Shown here: piece after piece, positions 1 to 31,486 of the stretch
Layout of the letters: each line of letters starts with the position of its first letter
Position numbering within the stretch: the first letter of the stretch is position 1
NCBI GenBank assembly: GCA_038229115.1
Contig: JBBROQ010000001.1
Location: 1-60,519, forward strand
Direction of reading: 5' to 3'
Length of the DNA: 60,519 nt
DNA from: Planctomycetota bacterium
GTDB taxonomy: Bacteria; Planctomycetota; UBA11346
Notes under the pieces: generated by a model
Database searches by the model: none
Seen by the model: only the letters and a program-made list of their open reading frames with translations
What the model was told of the DNA's origin: nothing
Program-made: the position numbers and the translations under genes

Positions 1-2567
1 CGGCTAATGGTCAGGCCCAAACCGGTGCCGCCGAAACGCCGAGCGTGACTGCCGTCGCCCTGGATGAAGGGCTGGAACAGGCGCGGCAGCACCTCAGTTG
101 CGATACCGATGCCGGTGTCACGAACGGTCATCGTCAGTCGGTCGACGACGCCGACCTGATCAACTGCGCAGCGCACCGTTACCTCGCCACGCTGGCTGAA
201 TTTCACCGCATTGCCGACCAAATTCAGCAGCACCTGACGCAGTCGGCCGACGTCGCCCAGCAGCCACGGCGGTACCGCCGATGCGACTTCCGCGCGCAGT
301 TCTAGCCCCTTCGCGCGCGCCGACCCGGCCAACATCACCAGCACCTCGTCGACCAGTTCCTGCGCTGCGAATGGCGCGCGTTCCAGTTCGATCCGGCCGG
401 CCTCGATCTTGGAAAAGTCGAGGATGTCGCTGACCAGCATCAACAGCGCATCGGCCGAGCTTTTTGCGGCGTCCAGCCAGGCGCGCTGCTCGGGCGAGGT
501 GCGCGTACCCTGCAGCAGCAACACGGCCCCGATCACACCGTTGAGCGGCGTGCGGATTTCGTGGCTCATGGTTGCGACAAATTCCGACTTCGCGCGGCCG
601 GCGGCTTCGGCCGCGTCGCGGGCTTGGCGCAGGTCCTGTTCGTGCCGCAGCTGCGCGCTGATATCGCGCGCGATGGTCGAGAAATGCGTGACCGCGCCGT
701 GCCGATCGCGATGCGCCAGGATGGTCTGGTGCATGGTGAACACCGAGGTGCCCGGCAGGTCATACCATTCGGTGATGCCCACCCACAGGCCATCGCGCAC
801 CGCGGTCGGCAGCGCTTCGCCCTGCAGCATCGCCAAGGTCGCCGGAGGATGGAGCGACTCGATGCGAACCGAGCCCAATTGCGCGGGATCATGCAGGCCC
901 AATTTGCGCCGGCCGACGGCGTTGCTGTAGAGGATCGCGCCGGTGGCCGCATCAGCGACGTCAATGTAGTCGGGACACAGCTCAATGATGTCGGCCAAGC
1001 GGCGAATGGCCGCCTCCATTTCAGCGCGTTGGGTGACGTCGTGTTCCAGCCCAATCATGCGCCGCGCGCGCCCCTGCGCGTCGCGTTCAATCACGCGCCC
1101 GCGACAGGCCAACCACCGCCAACTACCATCGCGATGACGGATGCGGTATTCGGCGTCATAGCGCTCGCTGCGCATGTCCAGGTGCTCGGTCAGGTGCCGT
1201 TCGCACAGCGGAAAATCGTCGGGGTGGACGCGTTCCTGCCACGCCGCAAAGCCCGGTGGCAAGTCATCTGCCTGAAAGCCCAACAGCGCGCACCAACGCG
1301 GGCTGCGATAAACCGTGTCGGTCAGCAGATCCCATTCCCACAGCCCCTGGCCGGTGGCATCCAGCGCCAGTTGCAGTCGCGCTTCGCTTTCGGCCAGGCG
1401 TAGCGTCGCCAGTTTGCGCGCGGTGATGTCCTGCGCGGTGCCCCAGAGTTCGGTGATCACGCCGCCTTCCGCACGGGCGAAACCGCGACCAAACAGCCAG
1501 GCTTCAGTGCCATCCGGACGGCGAACGCGGTATTCGATTTCGTCGGCCACGCCGCTGCTGCTCAGGCGCTCGACATAGGCCAGGAACGCCGGCGCATCGT
1601 CGGGATGGACGATGCGTTCGGTCAGCTCGGCATACGACGGCGTCGGGCCGTGCGGATCGCGGCCGAAGGCGATGAACAACTGCTCGCTCCAAACGATCAA
1701 CTGCGTGTTCAGATCGAACGACCAGTGCCCGATGCCGGCGACGGTCTGCACCTCATTCAGCCGCTCCGCCGCAGCGCTCAGTCGTGCCGCCGCGGCGCGC
1801 TGCTCAGTCAGATCGCTGAACGTACCGATGAGACGCAGTGGATGACCTTCGGGCGTGCGCCCGACGACGCGCGCGCGCCCCTCGACCCAACACCATGAAC
1901 CGTCGCGGCGCAGCATCCGGTGCTGATGCTGAAATCGTGGCGTCTCGCCCATCAGGTGCGCGGCAATGCCGGCTTTTACCGCCATATAGTCGTCAGGATG
2001 GATCAGCTGATCCCATACCGCGACGGTGTTCGGCAGTTCATCAGCGCCATAGCCCAAAATCTCGCGCACGCGCGCCGACAGGAACACGCTGTTGTCGACC
2101 GCATTCCAGTCCCATACGCCGTCGCCGCTGGTTTCGATGGCGTAGTTCCAGCGCTGTTCCATGAGCGCCAACGCGACCTCGGCCTGCCGGCGTTCGGTAA
2201 CGTCATGCAGCAGCCACAGCTCGCAGCCCGCCACTACCGACACCGCCCATTCGACCTGCCGTTCGCTGCCGTCGCGATTCCGGATCGGCAGCATGCGCAC
2301 GGTCGAAAAGCCGGCGGCGCGGTCGGCATCATAGCGCGCTCGGACCACCGCCGCGTCATCGCCATGCAGGCGCGCGAACCAGGTATCGATATCTGATAAT
2401 TCGGCGCCGGCATAGCCGGTCAGCGCCATGGCCAGACGGTTGAGCGTCAGCTGCTCGCCGGTCCGCAGCACTGCGCCAGCCGGCAGGTGCTCGATCAGCG
2501 ACGACAACGGCAAGGACGGTGAGGGCTGGGCGTCGGGGGCGGGAAAACGATTCACAGGCCGCAGCAT
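1..2567 (-). CDS. multi-PAS sensor histidine kinase (C-terminus runs off the left edge of the window)
   Basis: Absent from the ORF track because there is no stop inside the window. Manual reverse translation from the ATG (complement of cat 2565-2567) gives MLRPVNRF... followed by PAS-like segments (GDGVWDWN, LIHPDD, RMLRRDGSWCWVEG). The HisKA H-box FVATMSHEIRTPLNGV lies near 560-600 and the HATPase G2 box RRFGGTGLGLTIS at 1-60. Both ends are in the same frame, and no listed minus-strand ORF uses that frame. Confidence 0.85.
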   Translation of the reverse strand, partial: MLRPVNRFPAPDAQPSPSLPLSSLIEHLPAGAVLRTGEQLTLNRLAMALTGYAGAELSDIDTWFARLHGDDAAVVRARYDADRAAGFSTVRMLPIRNRDGSERQVEWAVSVVAGCELWLLHDVTERRQAEVALALMEQRWNYAIETSGDGVWDWNAVDNSVFLSARVREILGYGADELPNTVAVWDQLIHPDDYMAVKAGIAAHLMGETPRFQHQHRMLRRDGSWCWVEGRARVVGRTPEGHPLRLIGTFSDLTEQRAAAARLSAAAERLNEVQTVAGIGHWSFDLNTQLIVWSEQLFIAFGRDPHGPTPSYAELTERIVHPDDAPAFLAYVERLSSSGVADEIEYRVRRPDGTEAWLFGRGFARAEGGVITELWGTAQDITARKLATLRLAESEARLQLALDATGQGLWEWDLLTDTVYRSPRWCALLGFQADDLPPGFAAWQERVHPDDFPLCERHLTEHLDMRSERYDAEYRIRHRDGSWRWLACRGRVIERDAQGRARRMIGLEHDVTQRAEMEAAIRRLADIIELCPDYIDVADAATGAILYSNAVGRRKLGLHDPAQLGSVRIESLHPPATLAMLQGEALPTAVRDGLWVGITEWYDLPGTSVFTMHQTILAHRDRHGAVTHFSTIARDISAQLRHEQDLRQARDAAEAAGRAKSEFVATMSHEIRTPLNGVIGAVLLLQGTRTSPEQRAWLDAAKSSADALLMLVSDILDFSKIEAGRIELERAPFAAQELVDEVLVMLAGSARAKGLELRAEVASAVPPWLLGDVGRLRQVLLNLVGNAVKFSQRGEVTVRCAVDQVGVVDRLTMTVRDTGIGIATEVLPRLFQPFIQGDGSHARRFGGTGLGLTIS

Positions 2568-16665: not shown

Positions 16666-17520
16666 ATGCGCTTCACGAAAATGCACGGCTGCGGCAACGA
16701 TTACGTCTATGTCGACGCTTGGCGCGAAACCCTGCCCGCAGATCTGCCATCCCTGGCGCAACGCATCAGCGACCGCCACACCGGCATCGGCGCCGATGGC
16801 CTGATCATCGTCGGGCCGTCGGACGTGGCCGATGCGCGCATGACCATGTTCAACGCCGACGGCAGTCAGAGCGAGATGTGCGGCAACGGCTTGCGCTGCG
16901 CCGCGAAACTGGCCTTCGACCATCGTCATGTCCGCGGCCCCGCCCTGCGCGTGGAAACCGGAGCCGGCGTGTTGGACGTGACGTTGCTGATGCAGAAAAA
17001 AGTCTGCGCCGGCGCACAGGTAGTGATGGGCCGACCGCGCCTGACGCCGATCGCGGTGCCGGTCACACATCCCGGACCCGGACCGCGCCTGGAGCTCATG
17101 GTCAGCGTCAACGGCGAGCGACTGCGCCTATTAGCGGTGGGCATGGGCAATCCGCATGCGGTGCTCTTCGTCGATGACCCGGACAGCTTCCCGGTCGCCA
17201 CCGTCGGCCCGCGCCTGGAACACCACCCGCGCTTCCCGCGCCGCACCAATGTCGAATTCGTCGCGCGCCTCGCCGACGAAGCCGGCCTGCCGGTACTGCG
17301 CCAACGCACCTGGGAACGCGGCAGCGGCGAAACCCAAGCCTGCGGCACCGGCGCCTGCGCGACGCTGGTCGCCGCCGTCCTCACCGGCGTAATCCCCGGC
17401 CGCGAAGCCACCATCCGCCTCAACGGCGGCGACCTACACGTACGCTGGGCCCGCGACGACGGCCCGGTGGTGCTGACGGGGCCGGCGGTGGCGGTGTTTA
17501 GCGGCGAGATTGATGACTAA
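16666..17520 (+). CDS. dapF: diaminopimelate epimerase
   Basis: MRFTKMHGCGNDYVYVD, the first catalytic Cys in SEMCGNGLRC and the second in ETQACGTGACA. I prefer the ATG at 16666 over the track GTG at 16627. Confidence 0.93.
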   Translation: MRFTKMHGCGNDYVYVDAWRETLPADLPSLAQRISDRHTGIGADGLIIVGPSDVADARMTMFNADGSQSEMCGNGLRCAAKLAFDHRHVRGPALRVETGAGVLDVTLLMQKKVCAGAQVVMGRPRLTPIAVPVTHPGPGPRLELMVSVNGERLRLLAVGMGNPHAVLFVDDPDSFPVATVGPRLEHHPRFPRRTNVEFVARLADEAGLPVLRQRTWERGSGETQACGTGACATLVAAVLTGVIPGREATIRLNGGDLHVRWARDDGPVVLTGPAVAVFSGEIDD

Positions 17521-17607
17521 CGGACAAGCATCGGCCGGCGCGAGCCAGCATGGTGGGATGATGCGAAAACCACACGTCCAGCGCTAGGAAGCATGCGCTT
17601 GTTAGGC
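17515..17607 (-). repeat. ~90-nt boundary repeat, copy 1 (attC-like candidate: GCCTAAC ... GTTAGTC)
   Basis: Minus strand: GGCCTAACAAGCGCATGCTTCC...GATGCTTGTCCGTTAGTC. It is homologous (about 65-70% by eye) to 28617-28703, including an identical 11-mer cttgttaggcc on the + strand. It is GC-richer than the ORF it follows. The repeat is directly observed; the attC interpretation is tentative. Confidence 0.5.
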
Positions 17608-17610
17608 CGA

Positions 17611-17988
17611 TCACCATCCAAGACTGGTGAAATACCCCCTATAAACGCAAAGACACAGAGCAATCGTAGATATAGCCATCAAAGCTGAGCCAAAGATACG
17701 TACAGAGTGAGTGCTTTTTTTTACAATCATTAGCACGGATAGACCAAGTAAGATTGACGCTAGAAGGTACTGTATCAGGCCAATGGATTCGACTGCTGAT
17801 CGCAGTTGATCGCGCGCCGTGTGTTGAGCTGAAATTCGCCATTTTCCATCTGCGAATGAGCCGTCCAGATTCCTGTCCGTTCTGGGCAAATAGTAGCCGG
17901 CGTTTGCATTTAGTATTTCGATATCTACTGCAATCGAAGAGACCACGATCCCCAATATTGCCAGAATGGCAAGAATGACGTACTTCAT
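17611..17988 (-). CDS. hypothetical small membrane protein (about 3 TM helices)
   Basis: 125-aa AT-rich ORF with hydrophobic segments YVILAILAILGIVVSSIAV, IGLIQYLLASILLGLSVLMIV and IFGSALMAISTIALCLCVY. I recognise no family. Confidence 0.6.
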   Translation of the reverse strand: MKYVILAILAILGIVVSSIAVDIEILNANAGYYLPRTDRNLDGSFADGKWRISAQHTARDQLRSAVESIGLIQYLLASILLGLSVLMIVKKSTHSVRIFGSALMAISTIALCLCVYRGYFTSLGW

Positions 17989-18223
17989 CTCGTAGGCCTA
18001 ACATAAAGCTAAAACGGACCATTTACTTATAATGCAGCATAATGGAACAAGTAGCGTGGTGGGTGATTGGAAAGAGAACAGAGACGTAGCGTGAAGAACT
18101 GAGCGGGACATGGCGCCAGGATTCACTGATAACCTTAGTCCGCGAATTCTTGATTGGAGCTGGGTGACTGGAAAAAATAACACGAAATGGGCTCGTTTTC
18201 AACGTCTGGTTAGTCAATATTTC

Positions 18224-18514
18224 CTATTTATTATAATAATTCCATTGAGTCCGGTGAATCAGCTCTGTGTCAAATGCAATACATGGAAAGTAGAAATAAT
18301 AAAGAAACCTAGAAGGAGAAACACATTCTCCTGATCTTTGAAATATCACAGAAGGACACCATACTTTTTCTTCATGAGACATACTGCGAAACGAAGAAAC
18401 GTACTTTCCTCTAATTGACATTGGAACATAAGAAACAAAATAAATTAAAACCAATGCCCCAAATATTCGATCGACAGATTTATTATTGCAGCAAAGAATA
18501 CGCATAATATTCAC
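18224..18514 (-). CDS. hypothetical small protein (one TM segment)
   Basis: 96-aa AT-rich ORF with a GTG at 18514 or an ATG at 18505. Cys/aromatic-rich. I recognise no family. Confidence 0.4.
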   Translation of the reverse strand: MNIMRILCCNNKSVDRIFGALVLIYFVSYVPMSIRGKYVSSFRSMSHEEKVWCPSVIFQRSGECVSPSRFLYYFYFPCIAFDTELIHRTQWNYYNK

Positions 18515-18532
18515 TAAATGTATTTAGGTATT

Positions 18533-18694
18533 GGCTGACAGTTTATTAGGCGGCGGTGCGCATTTGCGCTGTTGGTACGGACTGCGGTCTATTGCATGCC
18601 ATGATGGCGGCACTATGGAGCACGCGCATGTCAACGTCAACTGTTCGCTCTACAGTTCGTGGTACGTCCGATAGGCGACTGAAGACTGTTGGAA
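18533..18694 (-). repeat. ~160-nt boundary repeat, copy A (attC-like candidate)
   Basis: About 80% identical by eye to 29194-29311 over ~118 nt (cagtttattaggcgg...ggtctattgcatgccat...cacgcgcatg.caacgtcaa). A second conserved block, actg..gttgg, sits at the same distance in both copies (18684-18694 versus 29340-29354). The minus strand ends GCCTAAT-AAACT-GTCAGCC. Confidence 0.6.
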
Positions 18695-18745
18695 TATTTA
18701 CCTTCAAGCTGTTTTACTCCAAGGTGTTTCCATGTTGGCGCTGGC

Positions 18746-19155
18746 TTAGTATCGGCGCCGGATTGAGCGGTTGCTAGAGCGTTTTCCGGGCTGCTGATCT
18801 ACAGCCTTAAACGAAGAAATTAGTACGCCCTCGTTGTCGTGCGCCATAATTATTGCGCAGAACATGTCTATCTCCAATAGGTCTCGTTGCTTTTCCCATA
18901 CTGTTAGATTATTAGATACTTACACAGTATTTCGTATTTTTGACCGTCAATATTTCCAGGCCCCCTCACTGCATTTTCGACGCTCCTTATTCCAGAGCTT
19001 TAGATCCTTTGCAATTATAATGCTCAACCTATAGCGCCGTCGCCTTTCAGATGAGCTGTTGTAGGCGAACATTGAAGTAATCGTGTAATATCGGCAGGAA
19101 TTAACTTCGCGCCCTTGATCCAAAAGCTGACGGTAGATTTTATGATTTTGTGCAT
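18746..19155 (-). pseudogene. DUF4279-like gene disrupted by frameshifts and stops
   Basis: My manual minus-strand translation finds an ATG at 19155 giving MHKIIKSTVSFWIKGAKLIPADITRLLQCSPTTAHLKGDGAIG*. Fragments follow in other frames (KERRKCSEGAWKY*, EIDMFCAIIMAHDNEGVLISS...). The N-terminal pattern and the D-x-FC...N-G motif resemble DUF4279 proteins as I remember them. Confidence 0.5.
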
Positions 19156-20752: not shown

Positions 20753-21292
20753 ATGTCTACGCATATTGAGTGTGTTGCAGGATCACTGGCCCAGGCACAA
20801 AGCATTGTTCACAGCCTTCACGAAGCGGGAATTGCTCAGGACGCGGTTTCCTACCGCTTGCCAAGTAGCAGCCAGCCCGAGAAATTCGATCGAGAATTCG
20901 TAGGATTGGGTGCGCCCAGCGATGAGGTTCTGCCGCCGGGTGGAGTGAAAGGCATGCTTAGTGGTCCGGTGGGCTGGGGCATTGGTCTGGGAATCCTCGG
21001 TTGGCTAATCGGTCTGTGCTTGGTGCTTTTTTCGGGTGCCGAACCGCGGTTGAACACAGGCAGCAATCGTGCGCTGCTGCTCCCGCTGATTGTTGCCTGC
21101 GGTGGCGGCGTGTTGGGATTAATTATCGCCAAAGTCATGTCACGCCGCGAGCGGCGCCGCTATCGGGATAAGCTCCGCGATGGTCGCATTTTGATTTCCG
21201 CTAAACTTCCTGAAGGCCCTGACAGAGATCATGCCCTGTCCATATTCCGACAGTCCGGAGCAGAGCACATCGCTTTACAGCCCCAGGATTAG
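20753..21292 (+). CDS. hypothetical membrane protein with a central Gly-rich TM region
   Basis: 179 aa with intermediate GC. Soluble N- and C-terminal modules flank GPVGWGIGLGILGWLIGLCLVLF and LLLPLIVACGGGVLGLIIA. A strong terminator follows. Confidence 0.55.
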   Translation: MSTHIECVAGSLAQAQSIVHSLHEAGIAQDAVSYRLPSSSQPEKFDREFVGLGAPSDEVLPPGGVKGMLSGPVGWGIGLGILGWLIGLCLVLFSGAEPRLNTGSNRALLLPLIVACGGGVLGLIIAKVMSRRERRRYRDKLRDGRILISAKLPEGPDRDHALSIFRQSGAEHIALQPQD

Positions 21293-21337
21293 GCACGACC
21301 TCGGTCACCTCGCCGCCGACGGCCCTCCGACCGGCCG

Positions 21338-21380
21338 CAGGCGGGCGCGCCCTTAAAATGCGCGCCCGCCTGGGGTTTTG
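21338..21380 (+). terminator. rho-independent terminator
   Basis: caggcgggcgcgc-ccttaaaat-gcgcgcccgcctg (13-bp GC stem) followed by gggttttgggg. Confidence 0.8.
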
Positions 21381-21632
21381 GGGCGGCTTTACTGTGATAG
21401 CGCAGGCGCACGGGCTCCTTGAATTGCCATTCGAGGCAGCGATAGCGATTGGGTAGATCTCACTTCTTCGAACACGGCCCGGCGAAATACGCAGGGCCAT
21501 CGGTTGCGACTTTCAGTTGTAAGATTGATTTATATACGGCAGACGTCGCCGCGCGCGTTTGCTGAATCGCCAACGACAGCCGTAGAATTGACAATGCCGC
21601 CGATGTCCGCTTAGTGCCGCCGGCCTGCCGCG

Positions 21633-23108: not shown

Positions 23109-24206
23109 ATGCGCTCACTTTCTTCTGCCTCAGCCACCACTGCCACTGCCTTCCAACGCCCGATCCCGGCCCTGTCCTGGACCGCTCTTGCCTCCATCAC
23201 CGCGATCGCGTTGGTGCTGTTGGTGGCCGCCTGGGAACGGCACTGCCGCGCCATCGGCTATGCGCCGGGCCTGGACGACACCAGCGATTTGTGGGTCGAA
23301 CAACGCCGTAGCGTGCGCCCCGACGAAACCGTCATCATCGGCGCCTCGCGCGGACTGTACGGCCTTGATTTGGATGAGCTGGAATCGGCCCTCGGGCGCC
23401 GGCCGGTGCAGCTGTGCTTGGTCGGGTCCTGCGTGTATCCGATCCTTCAGGACTTCGCCGATGACGCGTCGTTTCATGGCACCGTGATTTGCGACCTGGT
23501 GCCGGGACTGTTGTTGGTGCCGCCGATGGCGCCGCCCTACCACAACGCTGAAAAAGCGCTGGAGCGCAAGCGCACGCAAAGCCTCACGCAGCGCGCCAGC
23601 CACCTGCTGTCGCTGCCGCTCGAACGGACCTTCGCCTGTCTGCAAATGGACGATCTCACCCTGGCCGACCTGTTGCGTGACCTGCGCATTCCCAATCGTG
23701 CCCACGCGCAATTAGGCGCGGCCCTGCCGCCTTATTTTGGCCGCATCGATCGCGACCGCCGCACCTGGATGATCGACCGCGTGCAGACCGACGCCGCGCT
23801 GCGCGATCGGATCCAACGCGGCTGGATCCCGCTGTTCTCACCACCGCCGAAACCGCACTGGATCCCGGATCAGGCCTTCGGCGCCTACATGCACGCCATG
23901 GTCGACGGCCGCTTCGCCGCCATGGCCAAGGCCGTCGACACCATCCGCCAACGCGGCGGCAAAGTCGTCTTCCTACGCATGCCCTCTACCGGCGACCTGC
24001 GCGTGGTCGAAGACCGCCTCAGCCCGCGCACCGAGGTCTGGGACCGGCTGTTGCGCGAAGCCAACGCCCCCGGCGTGTACGCCGAGGATCACCCCGAACT
24101 GTGCGGCTTCGATATTCCCGAATCATCGCATTTGAGCGCCACGGCTTCGGTGGAGTTTACCCGCCAATTGGCGCCGTATATTCGCACGGCGCTGGCCGCG
24201 CACTGA
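23109..24206 (+). CDS. hypothetical membrane-anchored protein, probable partner of the MBOAT enzyme
   Basis: 365 aa, GC-rich, starting 10 nt after the MBOAT stop. It has one N-terminal TM segment (WTALASITAIALVLLVAAW). I recognise no family; its position corresponds to AlgJ/DltD-type partners. Confidence 0.6.
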   Translation: MRSLSSASATTATAFQRPIPALSWTALASITAIALVLLVAAWERHCRAIGYAPGLDDTSDLWVEQRRSVRPDETVIIGASRGLYGLDLDELESALGRRPVQLCLVGSCVYPILQDFADDASFHGTVICDLVPGLLLVPPMAPPYHNAEKALERKRTQSLTQRASHLLSLPLERTFACLQMDDLTLADLLRDLRIPNRAHAQLGAALPPYFGRIDRDRRTWMIDRVQTDAALRDRIQRGWIPLFSPPPKPHWIPDQAFGAYMHAMVDGRFAAMAKAVDTIRQRGGKVVFLRMPSTGDLRVVEDRLSPRTEVWDRLLREANAPGVYAEDHPELCGFDIPESSHLSATASVEFTRQLAPYIRTALAAH

Positions 24207-24215
24207 AAAACAATC

Positions 24216-25073
24216 TTATCTGACATGGATTTTTTTCAGAATGACCAATGCAATACCGCCGAGTATTGCCACCGAGGCCAACACCAAGCGCACGGTCATG
24301 GGCTCGCCTAAAATCAGGACGCCACCGAATGCGGCGATAATGGGAACACTCAGTTGCACGGTCGCCGCGCTGGTTGACCGCAATGCCGGCAAGACGCTGT
24401 ACCATATAATATAACCCAATGCAGACGCGACTGCTCCGGACATGACGGCGCATAGCGCACCGGCGGTATCGACAGAGGCATTCCCCCGGACAAACACGAC
24501 CAGAATGAAGGCCGCCGCTAATACCGCCGCACGCTTGAAATTACCGGCAGATACATTTGCGGGATCGCCCGCCCCTTTTCCGCGCAGCGAATAAATACCC
24601 CACGCCATACCGGCGGCCACCATAAGCAATGCACTGACGAGGGGCGGCGACGCCAGGCCGGGCGATAATAAAACCGCCAAGCCTCCTCCAGCTAAAAAAA
24701 TCCCGGCGATTTGCGTCCGCGATAGTTTCTCTCCGGTCCAAATCCCATATCCAATCATGCTGACCTGCACCGCAACAAACAGCAGCAGCGCGCCAGTCGC
24801 GGCCGAAAGATGCACATACGCCAACGAAAATCCACCGGCGTAAATAAACAGTGCCAAAGCAGAACGCCAATTCCCCGCGCCAATAGCCTTTCTGCGCGTC
24901 AGACGAACAATCAGCCACAACACCAGCGCGCCGGAGATCAAGCGAATCGCAGTAAAACTCGCCGCATCAATCGTCGTGCCCCGCAAAGCGGCACGACACA
25001 GCAGCGAATTTCCCGCAAACGCGAGCATGGCCAATGCTGTTAATAGAGCTATTCGCATAGGTGACATTTTCAT
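24216..25073 (-). CDS. DMT-superfamily (EamA-like) transporter
   Basis: 285 aa with about 10 TM helices in two EamA-type halves. GC is intermediate. Confidence 0.8.
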   Translation of the reverse strand: MKMSPMRIALLTALAMLAFAGNSLLCRAALRGTTIDAASFTAIRLISGALVLWLIVRLTRRKAIGAGNWRSALALFIYAGGFSLAYVHLSAATGALLLFVAVQVSMIGYGIWTGEKLSRTQIAGIFLAGGGLAVLLSPGLASPPLVSALLMVAAGMAWGIYSLRGKGAGDPANVSAGNFKRAAVLAAAFILVVFVRGNASVDTAGALCAVMSGAVASALGYIIWYSVLPALRSTSAATVQLSVPIIAAFGGVLILGEPMTVRLVLASVAILGGIALVILKKIHVR

Positions 25074-25209: not shown

Positions 25210-25554
25210 TTATACGTCAAATGCGAGGCGAATTCCGTTATCGACGGAAAACAGCAGTGCCGGATCCAGTTCACAGACAAAGTCCGATATTCTGGTTTTA
25301 TTAATGGTTAGAATCTGCGAAACATTGATAACGCTGTCTTTGGCTAATCCGGACTCTTCGTGTTTTACCAATACATTGCCGGGGGCTTTGGCCAAAGCCA
25401 CGTTCGTCGTTAGCATTGCGACCATTACCGTGGGTATTGAACTGGCATTAAAAAGATCCGACTGGATTATCATAACCGGGCGTCTGTCACCCGGCTCATT
25501 CCCAATTGGGCTATCCAGATTTGCCCAATACACTTCTCCGCGCCTCATTTCCAA
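25210..25554 (-). CDS. type II toxin, MazF/PemK family endoribonuclease
   Basis: RRGEVYWANLDSPIGNEPGDRRPVMIIQSDLFN...TVMVAMLTTN...DSVINVSQILTINKTRI matches the PemK/MazF fold pattern. Confidence 0.9.
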   Translation of the reverse strand: MEMRRGEVYWANLDSPIGNEPGDRRPVMIIQSDLFNASSIPTVMVAMLTTNVALAKAPGNVLVKHEESGLAKDSVINVSQILTINKTRISDFVCELDPALLFSVDNGIRLAFDV

Positions 25555-25781
25555 TCATTCCCAGGCAAATCAGCAATCCCGGCCGATTCAAATGCGGTGT
25601 CAATAGCCACAGATGACGAATACACCTTATTTAATTGATCGGTAATTCCATGGTCGCCTTCCTTCTCAACATACCATCGAATGGCATTCGTATAAAATTC
25701 GCTTCTGCTCATCTTTTTGCGACGCTGAATCCGCTCCGCGGCTTGAAAGACGCTGTCTGGCAGTGATATTGCAGTCTTCAT
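25545..25781 (-). CDS. ribbon-helix-helix (CopG/MazE-like) antitoxin
   Basis: 78 aa. MKTAISLPDSVFQAAERIQRRKKMSRSEFYTNAIRWYVEK has the RHH strand-helix-helix pattern. It overlaps the toxin start by 10 nt. Confidence 0.8.
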   Translation of the reverse strand: MKTAISLPDSVFQAAERIQRRKKMSRSEFYTNAIRWYVEKEGDHGITDQLNKVYSSSVAIDTAFESAGIADLPGNDWK

Positions 25782-25854
25782 GTTTGGAGTATGACCGGTT
25801 ATACCAGTCGATCAAGCATGCGCTCACCCTTGTTGAAAGCACCCCGATGTTTGG

Positions 25855-26006
25855 GAGCGGCCGCTGTGCGAAGCCAATGGCCAGTTGTATTCACTTAGGA
25901 TTACGAGAACCTGTGCGATTTCGACATCCCCGAATGGTCGTATTTGAGCGTCACGTCTTCGGTGGAATTTAACCGCCAATTGGCGCCATATATTCACGCG
26001 GCGCTG
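25855..26006 (+). pseudogene. diverged, frameshifted duplicate of the 3' end of the 23109..24206 gene
   Basis: Aligns with 24050-24200 at about 80% identity by eye. For example, ...cgaatggtcgtatttgagcgtcacgtcttcggtggaatttaaccgccaattggcgccatatattcacgcggcgctg aligns with ...cgaatcatcgcatttgagcgccacggcttcggtggagtttacccgccaattggcgccgtatattcgcacggcgctg. It encodes LCDFDIPEWSYLSVTSSVEFNRQLAPYIHAAL versus LCGFDIPESSHLSATASVEFTRQLAPYIRTAL, with a 1-nt indel and a TAG upstream. Confidence 0.8.
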
Positions 26007-27349: not shown

Positions 27350-27772
27350 TATTACGATTAGAATGCCAATGCCGCAGGAAATAAAAGCGTTCCTCGCGTG
27401 TTATCCAATTTCCAAAAAGTAGTTATCGTCTTTTATTCGGGTCATTTGGGTCTGTCCAACGACAAAGATCACAGTGGCCGGCCAAACAAGCTAGCTGAAA
27501 TAGAAGCAAGTATGTTACGAACTCCTGTGCATCACCTCGTTGGACCGCAATTTTATTGTTTAAAGACACCATATTTGTATTACAAGTTTAATTTATTATA
27601 TTTTAAGGAATCATGTACAAAAGATTTCTTAAATAACATCGCTGCGCTTAGGCAATTTTTATTTACCCCATTTGCTAACATAAAGGCAAGGGGGAATGTG
27701 GCCGAAACAACGCTAGACGCGCTGAGTGCCCATGGGGCAATTGGAAGGGCGGTGGGGGTTGGCGATTCGGCG

Positions 27773-28405: not shown

Positions 28406-28616
28406 AAGTGGATATCATTAGGTCAACTATTTTTATCTTAAATATTGTACGATTGGATTCATCAGAATTTATATTTTCAAGATGTCGGTCCAACATCAGA
28501 GAGCACCGTGACCATGCCCGACTGCCGTGGATCGCGCGGAAATCGTGGGTAGCAATTGGAACGATGGCTAGCGGAGCGTCAAGAACTGAGCGGCGGAACA
28601 GATCCCATCCTGAGCC

Positions 28617-28703
28617 ATTAAACCAGGCTGCCGCGAATTCTTGACCATAGCGGTGGGCGGGAACGAACACGTCATGGGCTCCGGTGCATCGACTTGTTAG
28701 GCC
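28617..28703 (-). repeat. ~90-nt boundary repeat, copy 2 (attC-like candidate: GCCTAAC ... GTTTAAT)
   Basis: Minus strand: GTGGCCTAACAAGTCGATGCACCGGAGCCCATGACGTGT...TTCGCGGCAGCCTGGTTTAAT. The GCCTAAC contains the TAA stop of the 163-aa ORF. Homologous to 17515-17607. Confidence 0.5.
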
Positions 28704-29188
28704 ACTTTTTCTATGATAATTGCATCATTATTGTCTTTATCCAAATATCGTTTTACCATGTAATTCCCATTGGGTCTATTTTTCAACAACAATAAAGTCG
28801 GAGATGAGCCATTAACGCTTTTGATTACATCATGGATTTTAGTTGGTGATCCATCTAATGGGAGTATTGCCAACGTTCCGCTATCTGACCCCAAAGGCCA
28901 ATGATTCGGATTTAATGATTTTCCAGTTATGGAATCACTTGAACCAATAAAAATATCACCCATCGATTCTACAACGGAACCTTCGCTGGTAATATCGACT
29001 ATCACTCCGCGTTTCTCTATAAACTTATAAACGTCGCATTGGTCGTCATTAAAGACATCGTCTAAATTGATAGGATCGCATATTAATATTTTACCATCTT
29101 TAACATTTATCGTTTCGTCACCGAAACCAACGCATGACAATTCTTCTTGTTTATCACATTGTGATATAATATATGTTTTTGTATTCAT
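28697..29188 (-). CDS. hypothetical acidic soluble protein (immunity-protein-like flavour, unassigned)
   Basis: 163 aa and very AT-rich, with no TM segment. It is bracketed by an 11-nt perfect inverted repeat, tgttaggccac (28694-28704) and gtggcctaaca (29191-29201). Confidence 0.6.
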   Translation of the reverse strand: MNTKTYIISQCDKQEELSCVGFGDETINVKDGKILICDPINLDDVFNDDQCDVYKFIEKRGVIVDITSEGSVVESMGDIFIGSSDSITGKSLNPNHWPLGSDSGTLAILPLDGSPTKIHDVIKSVNGSSPTLLLLKNRPNGNYMVKRYLDKDNNDAIIIEKVA

Positions 29189-29193
29189 TTGTG

Positions 29194-29354
29194 GCCTAAC
29201 AGTTTATTAGGCGGTTGTCCGCATTTTCGCTGTTGGCAAGGACTGTGGTCTATTGCATGCCATCATGGCATGCACTGTGGTACACGCGCATGGCAACGTC
29301 AATACTTCGCTCCCTTTCATAGAGAAAACTCGGGAACGACACTGCTGGTTGGCG
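29194..29354 (-). repeat. ~160-nt boundary repeat, copy B (attC-like candidate)
   Basis: The minus strand starts CGCCAAC (29354-29348) and ends GCCTAAT-AAACT-GTTAGGC (29200-29194), 5 nt before the ATG of the 163-aa ORF. It contains the perfect palindrome gcatgccat-c-atggcatgc (29255-29273). About 80% identical to copy A. Confidence 0.6.
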
Positions 29355-29419
29355 AAAGAATTATCTTCCCGTCATTTTATGTCGTGGCTCTGCAAGTCGG
29401 CGCAGGCCGAGTATCGGCG

Positions 29420-31486
29420 TCAGCGTTTCCCGCGTCCCCGCCGGTGACCTTTCGGGCGGCCGCGGGCGGGCGCGGTTTCGGCGGGTGCGCTGCCGTCGGC
29501 TTCGATGCGCTTGATTTGATCGCGTAGGCGGGCGGCTTCTTCGAAGCGCAGTTCTTCGGCGGCGGCGACCATGCGGGTGGTTAGGTCTGCGATGTCGGCA
29601 GTGGTCACGCGCGGGGCATCGCCGCCGGCGTCGTAGCCGCTGCCGGTGGGTTCGGCGACGCGACGGGCTTTGATTTGTTCGGCGAAGGTGTGGGCGGTGT
29701 CTTGCTTGGTCGCGGTGCGCGGGGTGATGCCGTGCTCGGTGTTGTAGGCGATTTGATACGCGCGGCGGCGGTCGGTTTCGCCTAACGCTGCGCGCATCGC
29801 AGCGGATTCGCCGTCGGCGTACAAGATCACTTGGCCGCTGACGTGGCGCGCGGCGCGGCCGATGGTTTGGATCAGCGAGGTCTGCGAGCGCAGGAAGCCT
29901 TCTTTGTCGGCGTCGAAGATCACCACCAACGAAACCTCCGGTAAATCCAGGCCTTCGCGCAGCAGGTTGACGCCGATCAGGCACTGCGTTTCGCCTTGGC
30001 GCAGGGCGTTCAGAATTTCGATGCGCTCGATCGCGTCGATGTCGCTGTGCAGGTACGTGGTGCGCACGCCGGCCTCGCTCAGGAATTCGGCCAGGTCTTC
30101 GGCCAGGCGTTTGGTCAGCGTGGTGACCAACGTGCGTTCGTTGCGCAGGCAGCGCGTGGTGACTTCGCGGATCAGGTCTTCGACTTGGCCGCTGGTCGGA
30201 CGCACGCTGACCGGCGGGTCGATGATGCCGGTCGGGCGCACCAATTGCTCGGCACGCATGGTTTCGTGTTTTGCTTCATAGGCGCCGGGCGTGGCCGAAA
30301 CGAAAACCATCTGTTTTACCAACGTTTCCCATTCAGCGAATTGCAGCGGTCGGTTGTCGAGCGCGCTGGGCAGGCGGAAGCCGTGCTGCACCAGGGTTTC
30401 TTTCCGGCTGCGATCGCCGGCGTACATACCGCCGATTTGCGGGACGGTGACGTGGCTTTCGTCGATCACGCACAGGAAGTCGGGCGGAAAAAAGTCGTAC
30501 AGACAGTACGGTCGCTCGCCGGGTTTGCGGCCGGTCAGATGCCGGGTGTAATTCTCGATGCCGCTGCAATAGCCGACCTCGCGCATCATTTCCAAATCGT
30601 AGAGCGTGCGCGAGCGCAGCCGCTGCGCTTCCAACAGCGCGTTCTGATTCATCAGCTCGCGGTAACGCTCTTCCAGTTCCGCTTCGATGGTCAGACAGGC
30701 GCCGGCCAGGGTTTGTTCTTCGACCACAAAGTGCTTCGCCGGGTAGATGTTCATGCTCTCATGCCGGCCCAGAACTTCGCCGGTAAGCGTGTGCACGGTG
30801 GCGATTTCTTCGACCTCGTCGCCGAAGAACGACACCCGAATCGCGGTGTCGTCATAGGCCGGCCACAGCTCGACCACATCGCCGCGCACCCGGAATTTGC
30901 CGCGTTGGAAGTTCAGATCACCGCGGTTGTATTGGATATTCAGCAGCGACAGCAGGAACGCATTGCGCTCCAAGGCCAAGCCGACGTGCAGCGAGACGGT
31001 CAGATCCTGATACGAATTCGGTGAACCCAGGCCGTAGATCGACGACACCGACGCAACGATTAGGACATCGCGCCGCGACAGCAGCGAGCGCGTTGCTGAC
31101 AAACGCAATTTGTCGATTTCCTCGTTGATTTGCGATTCTTTTTCGATGTAGAGGTCTTTGCCGGGCATATACGCCTCGGGCTGATAATAGTCGTAATAAC
31201 TGACGAAATATTCGACCGCGTTATGCGGGAAGAAGCCTTTGAACTCGCTATACAGCTGCGCCGCGAGGGTCTTGTTGTGACTGAGCACCAGCGTCGGTCG
31301 TTGCAGATTCGCGACCACGTTGGCGATGGTGAAGGTCTTGCCGCTGCCGGTCACGCCCAACAGCGTCGGCGCGCGCTGACCCTCCAGTAAAGCTGCGGTC
31401 AGGGCCGCAATTGCCTGCGGCTGATCGCCCATCGGCGGATAGGGCGCGACCAGTTGGAAACCCGCGGCGGTGTCGAGCGATGGCAT
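29420..31486 (-). CDS. uvrB: excinuclease ABC subunit B
   Basis: MPSLDTAAGFQLVAPYPPMGDQPQAIAAL...LLGVTGSGKTF (Walker A), the helicase motifs and a C-terminal UVR domain (ELRFEEAARLRDQI). I use the ATG at 31486; the track ORF is over-extended to 32209. Confidence 0.95.
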   Translation of the reverse strand: MPSLDTAAGFQLVAPYPPMGDQPQAIAALTAALLEGQRAPTLLGVTGSGKTFTIANVVANLQRPTLVLSHNKTLAAQLYSEFKGFFPHNAVEYFVSYYDYYQPEAYMPGKDLYIEKESQINEEIDKLRLSATRSLLSRRDVLIVASVSSIYGLGSPNSYQDLTVSLHVGLALERNAFLLSLLNIQYNRGDLNFQRGKFRVRGDVVELWPAYDDTAIRVSFFGDEVEEIATVHTLTGEVLGRHESMNIYPAKHFVVEEQTLAGACLTIEAELEERYRELMNQNALLEAQRLRSRTLYDLEMMREVGYCSGIENYTRHLTGRKPGERPYCLYDFFPPDFLCVIDESHVTVPQIGGMYAGDRSRKETLVQHGFRLPSALDNRPLQFAEWETLVKQMVFVSATPGAYEAKHETMRAEQLVRPTGIIDPPVSVRPTSGQVEDLIREVTTRCLRNERTLVTTLTKRLAEDLAEFLSEAGVRTTYLHSDIDAIERIEILNALRQGETQCLIGVNLLREGLDLPEVSLVVIFDADKEGFLRSQTSLIQTIGRAARHVSGQVILYADGESAAMRAALGETDRRRAYQIAYNTEHGITPRTATKQDTAHTFAEQIKARRVAEPTGSGYDAGGDAPRVTTADIADLTTRMVAAAEELRFEEAARLRDQIKRIEADGSAPAETAPARGRPKGHRRGRGKR

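Follow-up and report, generated by a model that had tools for sequence, protein, structure and literature searches.

Two copies of a repeated element in a Planctomycetota contig as probable integron platforms without an integrase

A repeated element found twice between dapF and uvrB of a Planctomycetota contig is, with high probability, the platform of a decayed integron; sequence comparison indicates that each copy consists of an attI site, a promoter region and what is left of the 5' end of a dead integrase gene (intI). The element is of a known kind, and the locus is one more case of an integron without its integrase. The 11.9-kb island that carries both copies is what remains of one sedentary integron or of two, and its orphan ORFs are gene cassettes. 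Less ordinary are the presence of two platform remnants at one locus, the way in which the island fits exactly from one stop codon to another, and attC sites that are long and well conserved in sequence. The window, by which is meant the whole stretch of 60.5 kb that was analysed, is a metagenome contig, and assembly across its repeated attCs could be chimeric.

The repeat and the island that carries it

The two blocks that a preliminary description of this DNA had judged by eye to be about 80% identical, 18533-18650 (copy A) and 29194-29311 (copy B), are 118 nt long and 82% identical (100 of 122 columns; MAFFT and global alignment). A second short conserved block, which had been placed at a like offset in each, is likewise present in both copies (ACTGTTGGAA at 18685-18694 in copy A and ACTGCTGGTTGGCG at 29341-29354 in copy B). 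The repeat is thus real, but the lengths first given to it, 162 and 161 nt, are too short. Sensitive blastn extends the homology to 18519-18757 versus 29180-29419 (243 columns, 71% identity, E 2e-35), and the element measures about 240 nt in copy B and about 290 nt in copy A rather than 160 nt. The copies are direct repeats in tandem orientation, 10.6 kb apart, and a profile built from both finds no third copy in the 60.5-kb window (nhmmer). At its outer end the homology of copy B stops one base before the stop codon of uvrB (29420-29422, minus strand).

Several other features of the first description hold as given. The terminal 7-5-7 motifs of both copies read exactly as quoted, and each copy lies just upstream of a minus-strand ORF: ORF163 (ATG 29188) starts 5 nt downstream of copy B and ORF96 (GTG 18514) starts 18 nt downstream of copy A. 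The two proteins had been called unrelated, and blastp detects no similarity between them. Both copies are also richer in GC (0.52-0.55) than the ORFs that they flank (0.33-0.35).

The low-GC island (about 42% GC, versus about 65% in the host DNA) runs from the dapF stop codon (17518-17520, plus strand) to the uvrB stop codon on the minus strand. It fills the gap between these two convergent housekeeping genes exactly, stop codon to stop codon, and the R' box of its last, truncated attC (GTTAGTC, 17515-17521) overlaps the dapF stop codon. Its content is mostly orphan ORFs, together with a MazEF pair, an EamA transporter and an MBOAT gene, and on the minus strand it reads as an integron cassette array. 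Apart from the stump in copy A, the 60.5-kb window contains no tyrosine recombinase motif or integrase-like translation, and exact look-ups of the window proteins gave no match. The host contig is placed in Planctomycetota by homologs of its DapF, the closest relative showing 79% identity. In L001 and L002 dapF is not adjacent to uvrB, and with the closest DapF only 79% identical the relatives are too distant for an empty-site comparison of the dapF-uvrB intergenic region.

The island also contains a separate imperfect direct repeat, 24026-24194 versus 25839-26006 (77% identity, 1.8 kb apart). The former is the 3' end of ORF365 (23109-24206, plus strand) and the latter a non-coding fragment; between them lie the EamA transporter gene (24216-25073, minus strand) and the MazEF toxin-antitoxin pair (25210-25781, minus strand). 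The arrangement has the look of an insertion by which the end of a gene was displaced or duplicated. A diversity-generating retroelement was rejected as its source, the mismatches not being adenine-specific and a reverse transcriptase being absent. Just past ORF179 (20753-21292, plus strand), a GC-rich palindrome of 41 nt (21335-21375, GGCGGGCGCGCCC...GCGCGCCCGCC) looks like a terminator. The stretch 21310-21460 was considered as a displaced 3' end of uvrB and rejected as well; its weak similarity to the 3' coding region of that gene (blastn, 63%) is set in a GC-rich background, has no counterpart at the protein level and appears to be compositional.

Table 1. Positions of platform remnants, candidate promoters and cassettes in the window
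Feature	Position	Strand	Remarks
Conserved core, copy A	18533-18650		attI, promoter-like block and intI start CCATGATGG at 18599-18607
attI-A simple site, degenerate	18533-18551	-	L GCCTAAT, spacer AAACT, R GTCAGCC
Candidate Pc, copy A	18612-18640	-	TTGACG-17-CATAGT; consensus match only, promoter scan
intI stump, copy A	18601-18809	+	N-terminal ~60 codons, frameshifted, two in-frame stops
Conserved core, copy B	29194-29311		attI, promoter-like block and first codons of dead intI
attI-B simple site	29194-29212	-	L box GCCTAAT 29212->29206, spacer AAACT 29205->29201, R box GTTAGGC 29200->29194; matches attI simple sites of L068, L073, L071 and L017
Candidate Pc, copy B	29274-29302	-	TTGACG-17-CACAGT; consensus match only
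Putative intI stump, copy B	29260-29419	+	Start-codon region CCATCATGG; heavily decayed, cut at uvrB stop codon
Cassette 1 of array B	28489-29199	-	ORF163 (29188->28697) and attC
attC of ORF163 cassette	28702->28488	-	R'' GCCTAAC, R' GTTGGAC; family profile E 7e-38
Partial attC, 3' half	27745->27674	-	Family profile search; R' GTTAGCA at 27680->27674
Short attC variant, 92 nt	27454-27545	-	After ORF210 cassette; R'' GTCCAAC, R' GTTGGAC
Cassette after copy A	17997-18538	-	ORF96 (18514->18224) and full-length attC
attC of ORF96 cassette	18215->17996	-	R'' GACTAAC, R' GTTAGGC; family profile E 4e-41
Last cassette	17515-18001	-	ORF125 (17988->17611) and truncated attC (17607->17515)

Gene cassettes and a family of long attC sites

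The cassettes of the island are recognised by their attC sites, which belong to a family of unusual length. ORF163 has a single homolog in the protein collection (82% identity), carried on two short JGI metagenome contigs. One of these contigs, L004, is a plain cassette array of three small ORFs with repeats of about 216-222 nt between them. The repeats start with GCCTAAC, GGCTAAC or GCCCAAC and finish with GTTAGCC, GTTGGGC or GTTAGGC, and each ORF is preceded by six bases exactly complementary to the box that follows it. This complementarity is the signature of integron cassettes, in which recombination takes place between the G and the TT of the core site. Two repeats that appear in a self-comparison of the window, 18055-18227 and 28544-28714, belong to the same family.

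A gapped pattern drawn from three conserved blocks of these repeats matches 48 loci in the species-genome collection. A single Planctomycetota MAG, JALHRW01, contributes most of these. A profile of 87 sites detects 130 full-length attCs of modal length 217 nt in all the DNA fetched, and the same MAG again supplies the majority. Between the TTRRRY of an R' box and the R'' that follows in the next cassette there is agreement in 48 of 73 adjacent pairs, versus 30 of 130 for the R'' of the same site. The fold predicted by RNAalifold for 21 diverse sites comprises an R''/R' stem, an unpaired spacer of 5 nt and a bulged L''/L' stem, and 16 of its base pairs show compensatory changes.

Members of the family share a conserved internal hairpin (TCAAGAATTCGCG...CGCTCAGTTCTTGA) and fall into two subtypes (GGTGCAG... 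and GTTGAAACC...). They occur in the window at 17996-18215 and 28488-28702 (minus strand) and in L003-L052 and L068-L073, and a few are on contigs binned as Kiritimatiellae, Uliginosibacterium and Saccharibacteria. In L003 a transposase-like ORF of 336 aa (1319-2329, minus strand) stands directly behind the ORF164 cassette, where an attC is expected, and the R'' box is disrupted there (GGCCTCCTAATGAAC), which suggests an insertion sequence inside the array. In the literature searched, neither an earlier description of the 217-nt family nor a stated size limit for attC sites was found. Classical attCs span 57-141 nt, and the size limit of attC finders is probably near 200 nt. A hand-written search of the island for canonical attCs of 45-170 nt (minimum match 6/7 for R''/R' and 6/8 for L''/L') found none, since the true sites, at about 217 nt, exceed that length.

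The boxes of the window cassettes correspond in the manner seen in L004. The TTAGGC that leads the ORF163 cassette is the complement of that cassette's own R'' GCCTAAC, and the leading TTAGGC of the ORF125 cassette is likewise the complement of an R'' GCCTAAC. The R'' of the 92-nt attC variant, GTCCAAC, complements the R' that precedes it, GTTGGAC. Between this variant and the partial attC lies what is apparently an ORF-less cassette of about 135 nt (27546-27679, minus strand).

The attI site, the promoter-like block and the intI stump

The boundary between platform and cassette can be placed to the base in copy B. The same ORF163 cassette lies behind an ordinary attC in L004 and behind copy B here, and the switch falls exactly at G|TTAGGC: before the R box the identity of window and L004 is at background level, and from GTTAGGCCACAAATG onward it is about 88%. 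The crossover point of attI-B is thus between G29200 and T29199, and the early remark that the 7-5-7 end resembles the simple site of an attI or attC is borne out by a cassette junction that maps exactly to G|TT. As the junction is undamaged and agrees with the cassette beside it, uptake or release of cassettes at copy B could still take place if IntI were supplied in trans from elsewhere in the genome. In attI-A the GTT of the R box has become GTC, which departs from the 7-bp consensus GTTRRRY, and its TCAGCC has two mismatches to the R'' GACTAAC of the cassette that follows. With the GTT lost and the R box no longer matching the next cassette, copy A is probably inert, to judge by its bases.

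Ordinary attCs on unrelated marine contigs can also end, at L'-R', in the 20-nt simple site CCGCCTAATAAACTGTTAGSY, so that the simple site alone is no proof of an attI. A metagenome scan with it returned 15 loci, of which seven are coincidences within coding sequence (a conserved ATGGCTGACAGTTTATTAGGCGG gene start). The other eight are at the start of an adjacent ORF and have no adjacent intI, and none of the 15 contains a closer homolog of the repeat, apart from about 45 nt in L064. These eight occurrences (L053, L054, L055, L058, L059, L062, L064 and L067) are mostly on AT-rich marine contigs and in most cases stand 8-20 nt upstream of the apparent ORF start. In L058 and L059 the sequence is the L'-R' end of an ordinary attC of 75-90 nt, and in L064 it is a bare palindrome of 25 nt between two cassettes.

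Complete integrons with the same attC family provide the comparison for the rest of the element. One of them, L017 (JALHRW010000028.1), encodes an intact integrase of 453 aa, and integrase relatives at 75-77% identity to it led to three more complete integrons (L068-L070, L071/L072 and L073) in JGI and Logan metagenomes. Their attI simple sites read GCCTAAT-TAAACT-GTTAGGC in L068, CCCAAT-TAAACT-GTTAGGC in L073, CCCACT-TAAACT-GTTAGGC in L071 and TCCAAT-TAACT-GTTAGCC in L017. The match between attI and the R'' of the first cassette is perfect in three of the four and 6/7 in L071. Both window copies are collinear with the attI-intI 5' regions of all four, the order being simple site, promoter-like block, intI ATG and the motif WW...WYRVR. 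In the complete integrons the block ahead of the intI ATG resembles an intI promoter (TTGCGT...TATAAT), and the coding motif past the ATG is WW..YLQSLL.QG.P.K...WYRVRVEQLL.

With 413-453 aa or more, the integrases of this clade are long (L017 3584-4945, P0122-P0161). They carry an N-terminal extension with WW..YLQSLL..G.P.K..WYRVRVEQLL before the usual SAM-like and catalytic domains, and this extension is the part that survives as a stump in the window. The window thus shares with the complete Planctomycetota integrons the 217-nt attC family, the attI simple-site consensus and, as a stump, the IntI N-terminal motif WW...WYRVRVEQLL. Unlike the window, the complete integrons have an intact IntI of 413-453 aa, and their promoter-like block is about 29 bases further from the simple site; they lie beside glmS/glnE or clpB and not between dapF and uvrB.

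The integrase remnant is clearest in copy A, where the translation reads ATEDCWNIYLQAVLLQGVSMLALA-stop-YRRRIERLLERFPGC-stop-STAL. When seven integrases were compared with the whole window by tblastn, 18675-18809 (plus strand) was the only region with a significant match (51-53% identity to integron integrases over 39-45 residues, E 3e-7 to 9e-7). A DNA profile made from the four complete integrons alone likewise has its best window match in copy A (18645-18775, E 1.6e-4), followed by the simple site of copy B (E 0.43). In copy B no protein-level match to IntI was detected by tblastn of the whole window. Its stump is homologous to that of copy A at the DNA level and retains the residues CW...YRR; the assignment of this stump follows from its homology to copy A. 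The stump of copy A is about 50 nt longer, and a continuation of the intI remnant of copy B beyond 29419 into uvrB is not significant (129 of 500 shuffles score as well). The second conserved block of the repeat consists of the Trp-motif codons of the stump. The sequences TTCCAAC and CGCCAAC, earlier described as inverse-core-like, are the antisense of GTTGGAA and GTTGGCG, the codons of that same motif (Cys-Trp here), and the former description is accordingly abandoned.

With a profile of the repeat, the non-coding part of attI in the complete integrons gives nhmmer E values of 0.016-0.028 and is weakly similar outside the simple site, so that it is chiefly the intI-stump part that gives statistical support (E 1.6e-4) to homology of the attI region. 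The non-coding part is assigned as a putative attI by where it lies, by its simple site and collinearity, and by the stump next to it.

A candidate cassette promoter, TTGACG-17-CAYAGT, is conserved in both copies on the cassette strand. The promoter scan reported the site in copy A only, its equivalent in copy B falling below the scan threshold. The distal part of the repeat, the intI stump, is 59% identical between copies versus 82% for the core (Fisher p 1.4e-4), and the better-conserved core would carry the cassette promoter. Its conservation fits retention of the promoter, of attI or of both; gene conversion could give the same pattern.

Alternative readings, origin and significance

The general scheme of attI and the integron platform has been described (PMC4889954). 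In a working integron, IntI binds the L and R boxes of double-stranded attI and recombines with it the folded bottom strand of the attC of a circular cassette, between the G and the TT of the R box. The new cassette lands directly downstream of attI, where a platform promoter can transcribe it. Each copy of the repeat would be the platform end of such an integron, from which the integrase has been lost and some 50-60 intI codons are left on the opposite strand. [quoted passage not shown] Capture of cassettes at attI would account for the unrelated orphan ORF that starts a few bases downstream of each copy.

The preliminary description had offered decayed attCs as one reading of the repeat, and the copies could be taken for long sites with TTCCAAC or CGCCAAC as R'' and GTYAGSC as R'. 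In L058 and L059, ordinary attCs finish at L'-R' with the same GCCTAAT-AAACT-GTTAGGC, and copy B can form a mini-hairpin of 45 nt in which GCCAACAG is paired with CTGTTAGGC. However, this hairpin is not conserved in copy A, and neither copy matches the profile of the local attC family at an E value of 10 or below, whereas the two true attCs are detected at E values below 1e-37. A scan for R''/R' and L''/L' complementarity was empty at both copies, and the proposed inverse cores lie, as Trp codons, inside the translated IntI-like stretch. The folding of both strands that had been proposed as a check was carried out for RNA and DNA and for both copies, and it reveals no shared structure; the full-length folds leave the ends unpaired and differ between copies. 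The repeat does have the L'-spacer-R' motif of attC sites (59-base elements), in the form of the 20-nt sequence discussed above, but it has no R''-L'' half, no imperfect palindrome and no stem with extrahelical bases. Decayed attCs are therefore a very unlikely reading, and the suggestion is set aside. It is also highly improbable that the copies are direct repeats of the attL/attR type, left by a 10.6-kb island that inserted just behind uvrB and brought a copy of the target region with it. The direct orientation, the abutment of copy B on the uvrB stop codon and the second imperfect direct repeat (24026-24194, 25839-26006), which brackets other inserted genes, would agree with such an event. 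Between the repeats, however, there is no integrase or excisionase; the identity is only 71%, with no identical crossover core; the extra intI stump of copy A, some 50 nt, has no counterpart beside uvrB; and integron cassettes with attCs come after each copy.

A shared promoter, 5' leader or small RNA without any present role in recombination is an improbable account of the element as a whole. The better conservation of the ORF-proximal core, the presence of TTGACG-17-CAYAGT on the ORF strand of both copies and the minus-strand fold of copy B (z = -3.25) argue for it. Against it, the folds differ between copies, those of copy A having z-scores of -1.9 and -0.06, and Rfam gives only two weak matches (E 0.5-0.9), far below gathering thresholds. 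Such an account also leaves the IntI-coding remnant and the exact G|TT junction unexplained. A promoter is compatible with the platform, as a sub-function of it (Pc) rather than a true alternative. The earlier proposal of a shared promoter or leader thus survives as the platform's candidate cassette promoter, a consensus match conserved in both copies, and fails as a substitute for attI. There is next to no probability that the repeat is a dispersed element of the MITE or REP type, as had also been proposed. As might be expected of such an element, it is non-coding, spans 160-240 nt and has a short inverted repeat at one end, but only two copies exist in the 60.5-kb window and the 21-mer of the core and hairpin (TCTATTGCATGCCATNATGGC) has no exact match in 185,579 species genomes. 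Nor are there terminal inverted repeats or target-site duplications, and both copies head cassettes and have a gene remnant inside them.

The preferred reading, a platform remnant with attI and a dead intI stump, can be set beside known integrons. With the attI of integrons (attI1 of class 1 and those of sedentary chromosomal integrons) the repeat shares two inverted 7-bp boxes with a spacer of 5-6 bp and an R box GTTRRRY. It also shares the position between intI and the first cassette, the crossover at G|TT and a cassette promoter, here a candidate, in or next to the platform. The window differs in that intI is reduced to a stump of about 50-60 codons with no intact integrase on the 60.5-kb contig, in its two tandem platform copies 10.6 kb apart, and in the mutated R box (GTC) of copy A. 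No accessory direct repeats like DR1 and DR2 of attI1 were identified in the window copies.

Clusters of attC sites without an integron integrase are known as CALIN (Cury et al. 2016, PMC4889954), and the occurrence of integrons in Planctomycetes, of CALIN, and of intI pseudogenes beside some CALIN is established (PMC4889954, PMC8352920). Like a CALIN, the window has a cassette array without a functional integrase, which is read as loss of intI from a once complete integron; its attCs of about 217 nt are much longer than classical attC sites. Pseudogenes of intI were found near 15 of 279 CALIN in a search that needed more than 50% coverage of the integrase profiles (PMC4889954), and a short N-terminal stump would therefore be missed by it.

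Both copies lack the roughly 29 nt found in the complete integrons and are each other's closest relatives in an alignment of six sequences, which suggests a common ancestral platform. The two copies thus presumably arose from one platform by duplication, although two acquisitions from related donors are possible. That the platforms are maintained as solo landing pads and expression sites, served by an IntI encoded elsewhere in the genome, is rather unlikely but deserves mention; if this were true, one integrase could feed several attI sites.

The general view of how integrons work is unchanged by this locus. It does indicate that an N-terminal intI stump together with attI can mark the origin of an integrase-less attC cluster, in cases where searches based on the C-terminal domain would find nothing. 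Attention to site length may matter as well: attCs of 217 nt are beyond the usual size and perhaps beyond the defaults of attC finders, and such arrays may be systematically under-detected. The by-products of the analysis, an attI consensus YCCWAWT-(T)AAACT-GTTAGSC and a covariation-supported family of 217-nt attCs, describe a Planctomycetota integron clade and can be used to annotate large cassette arrays in environmental genomes.
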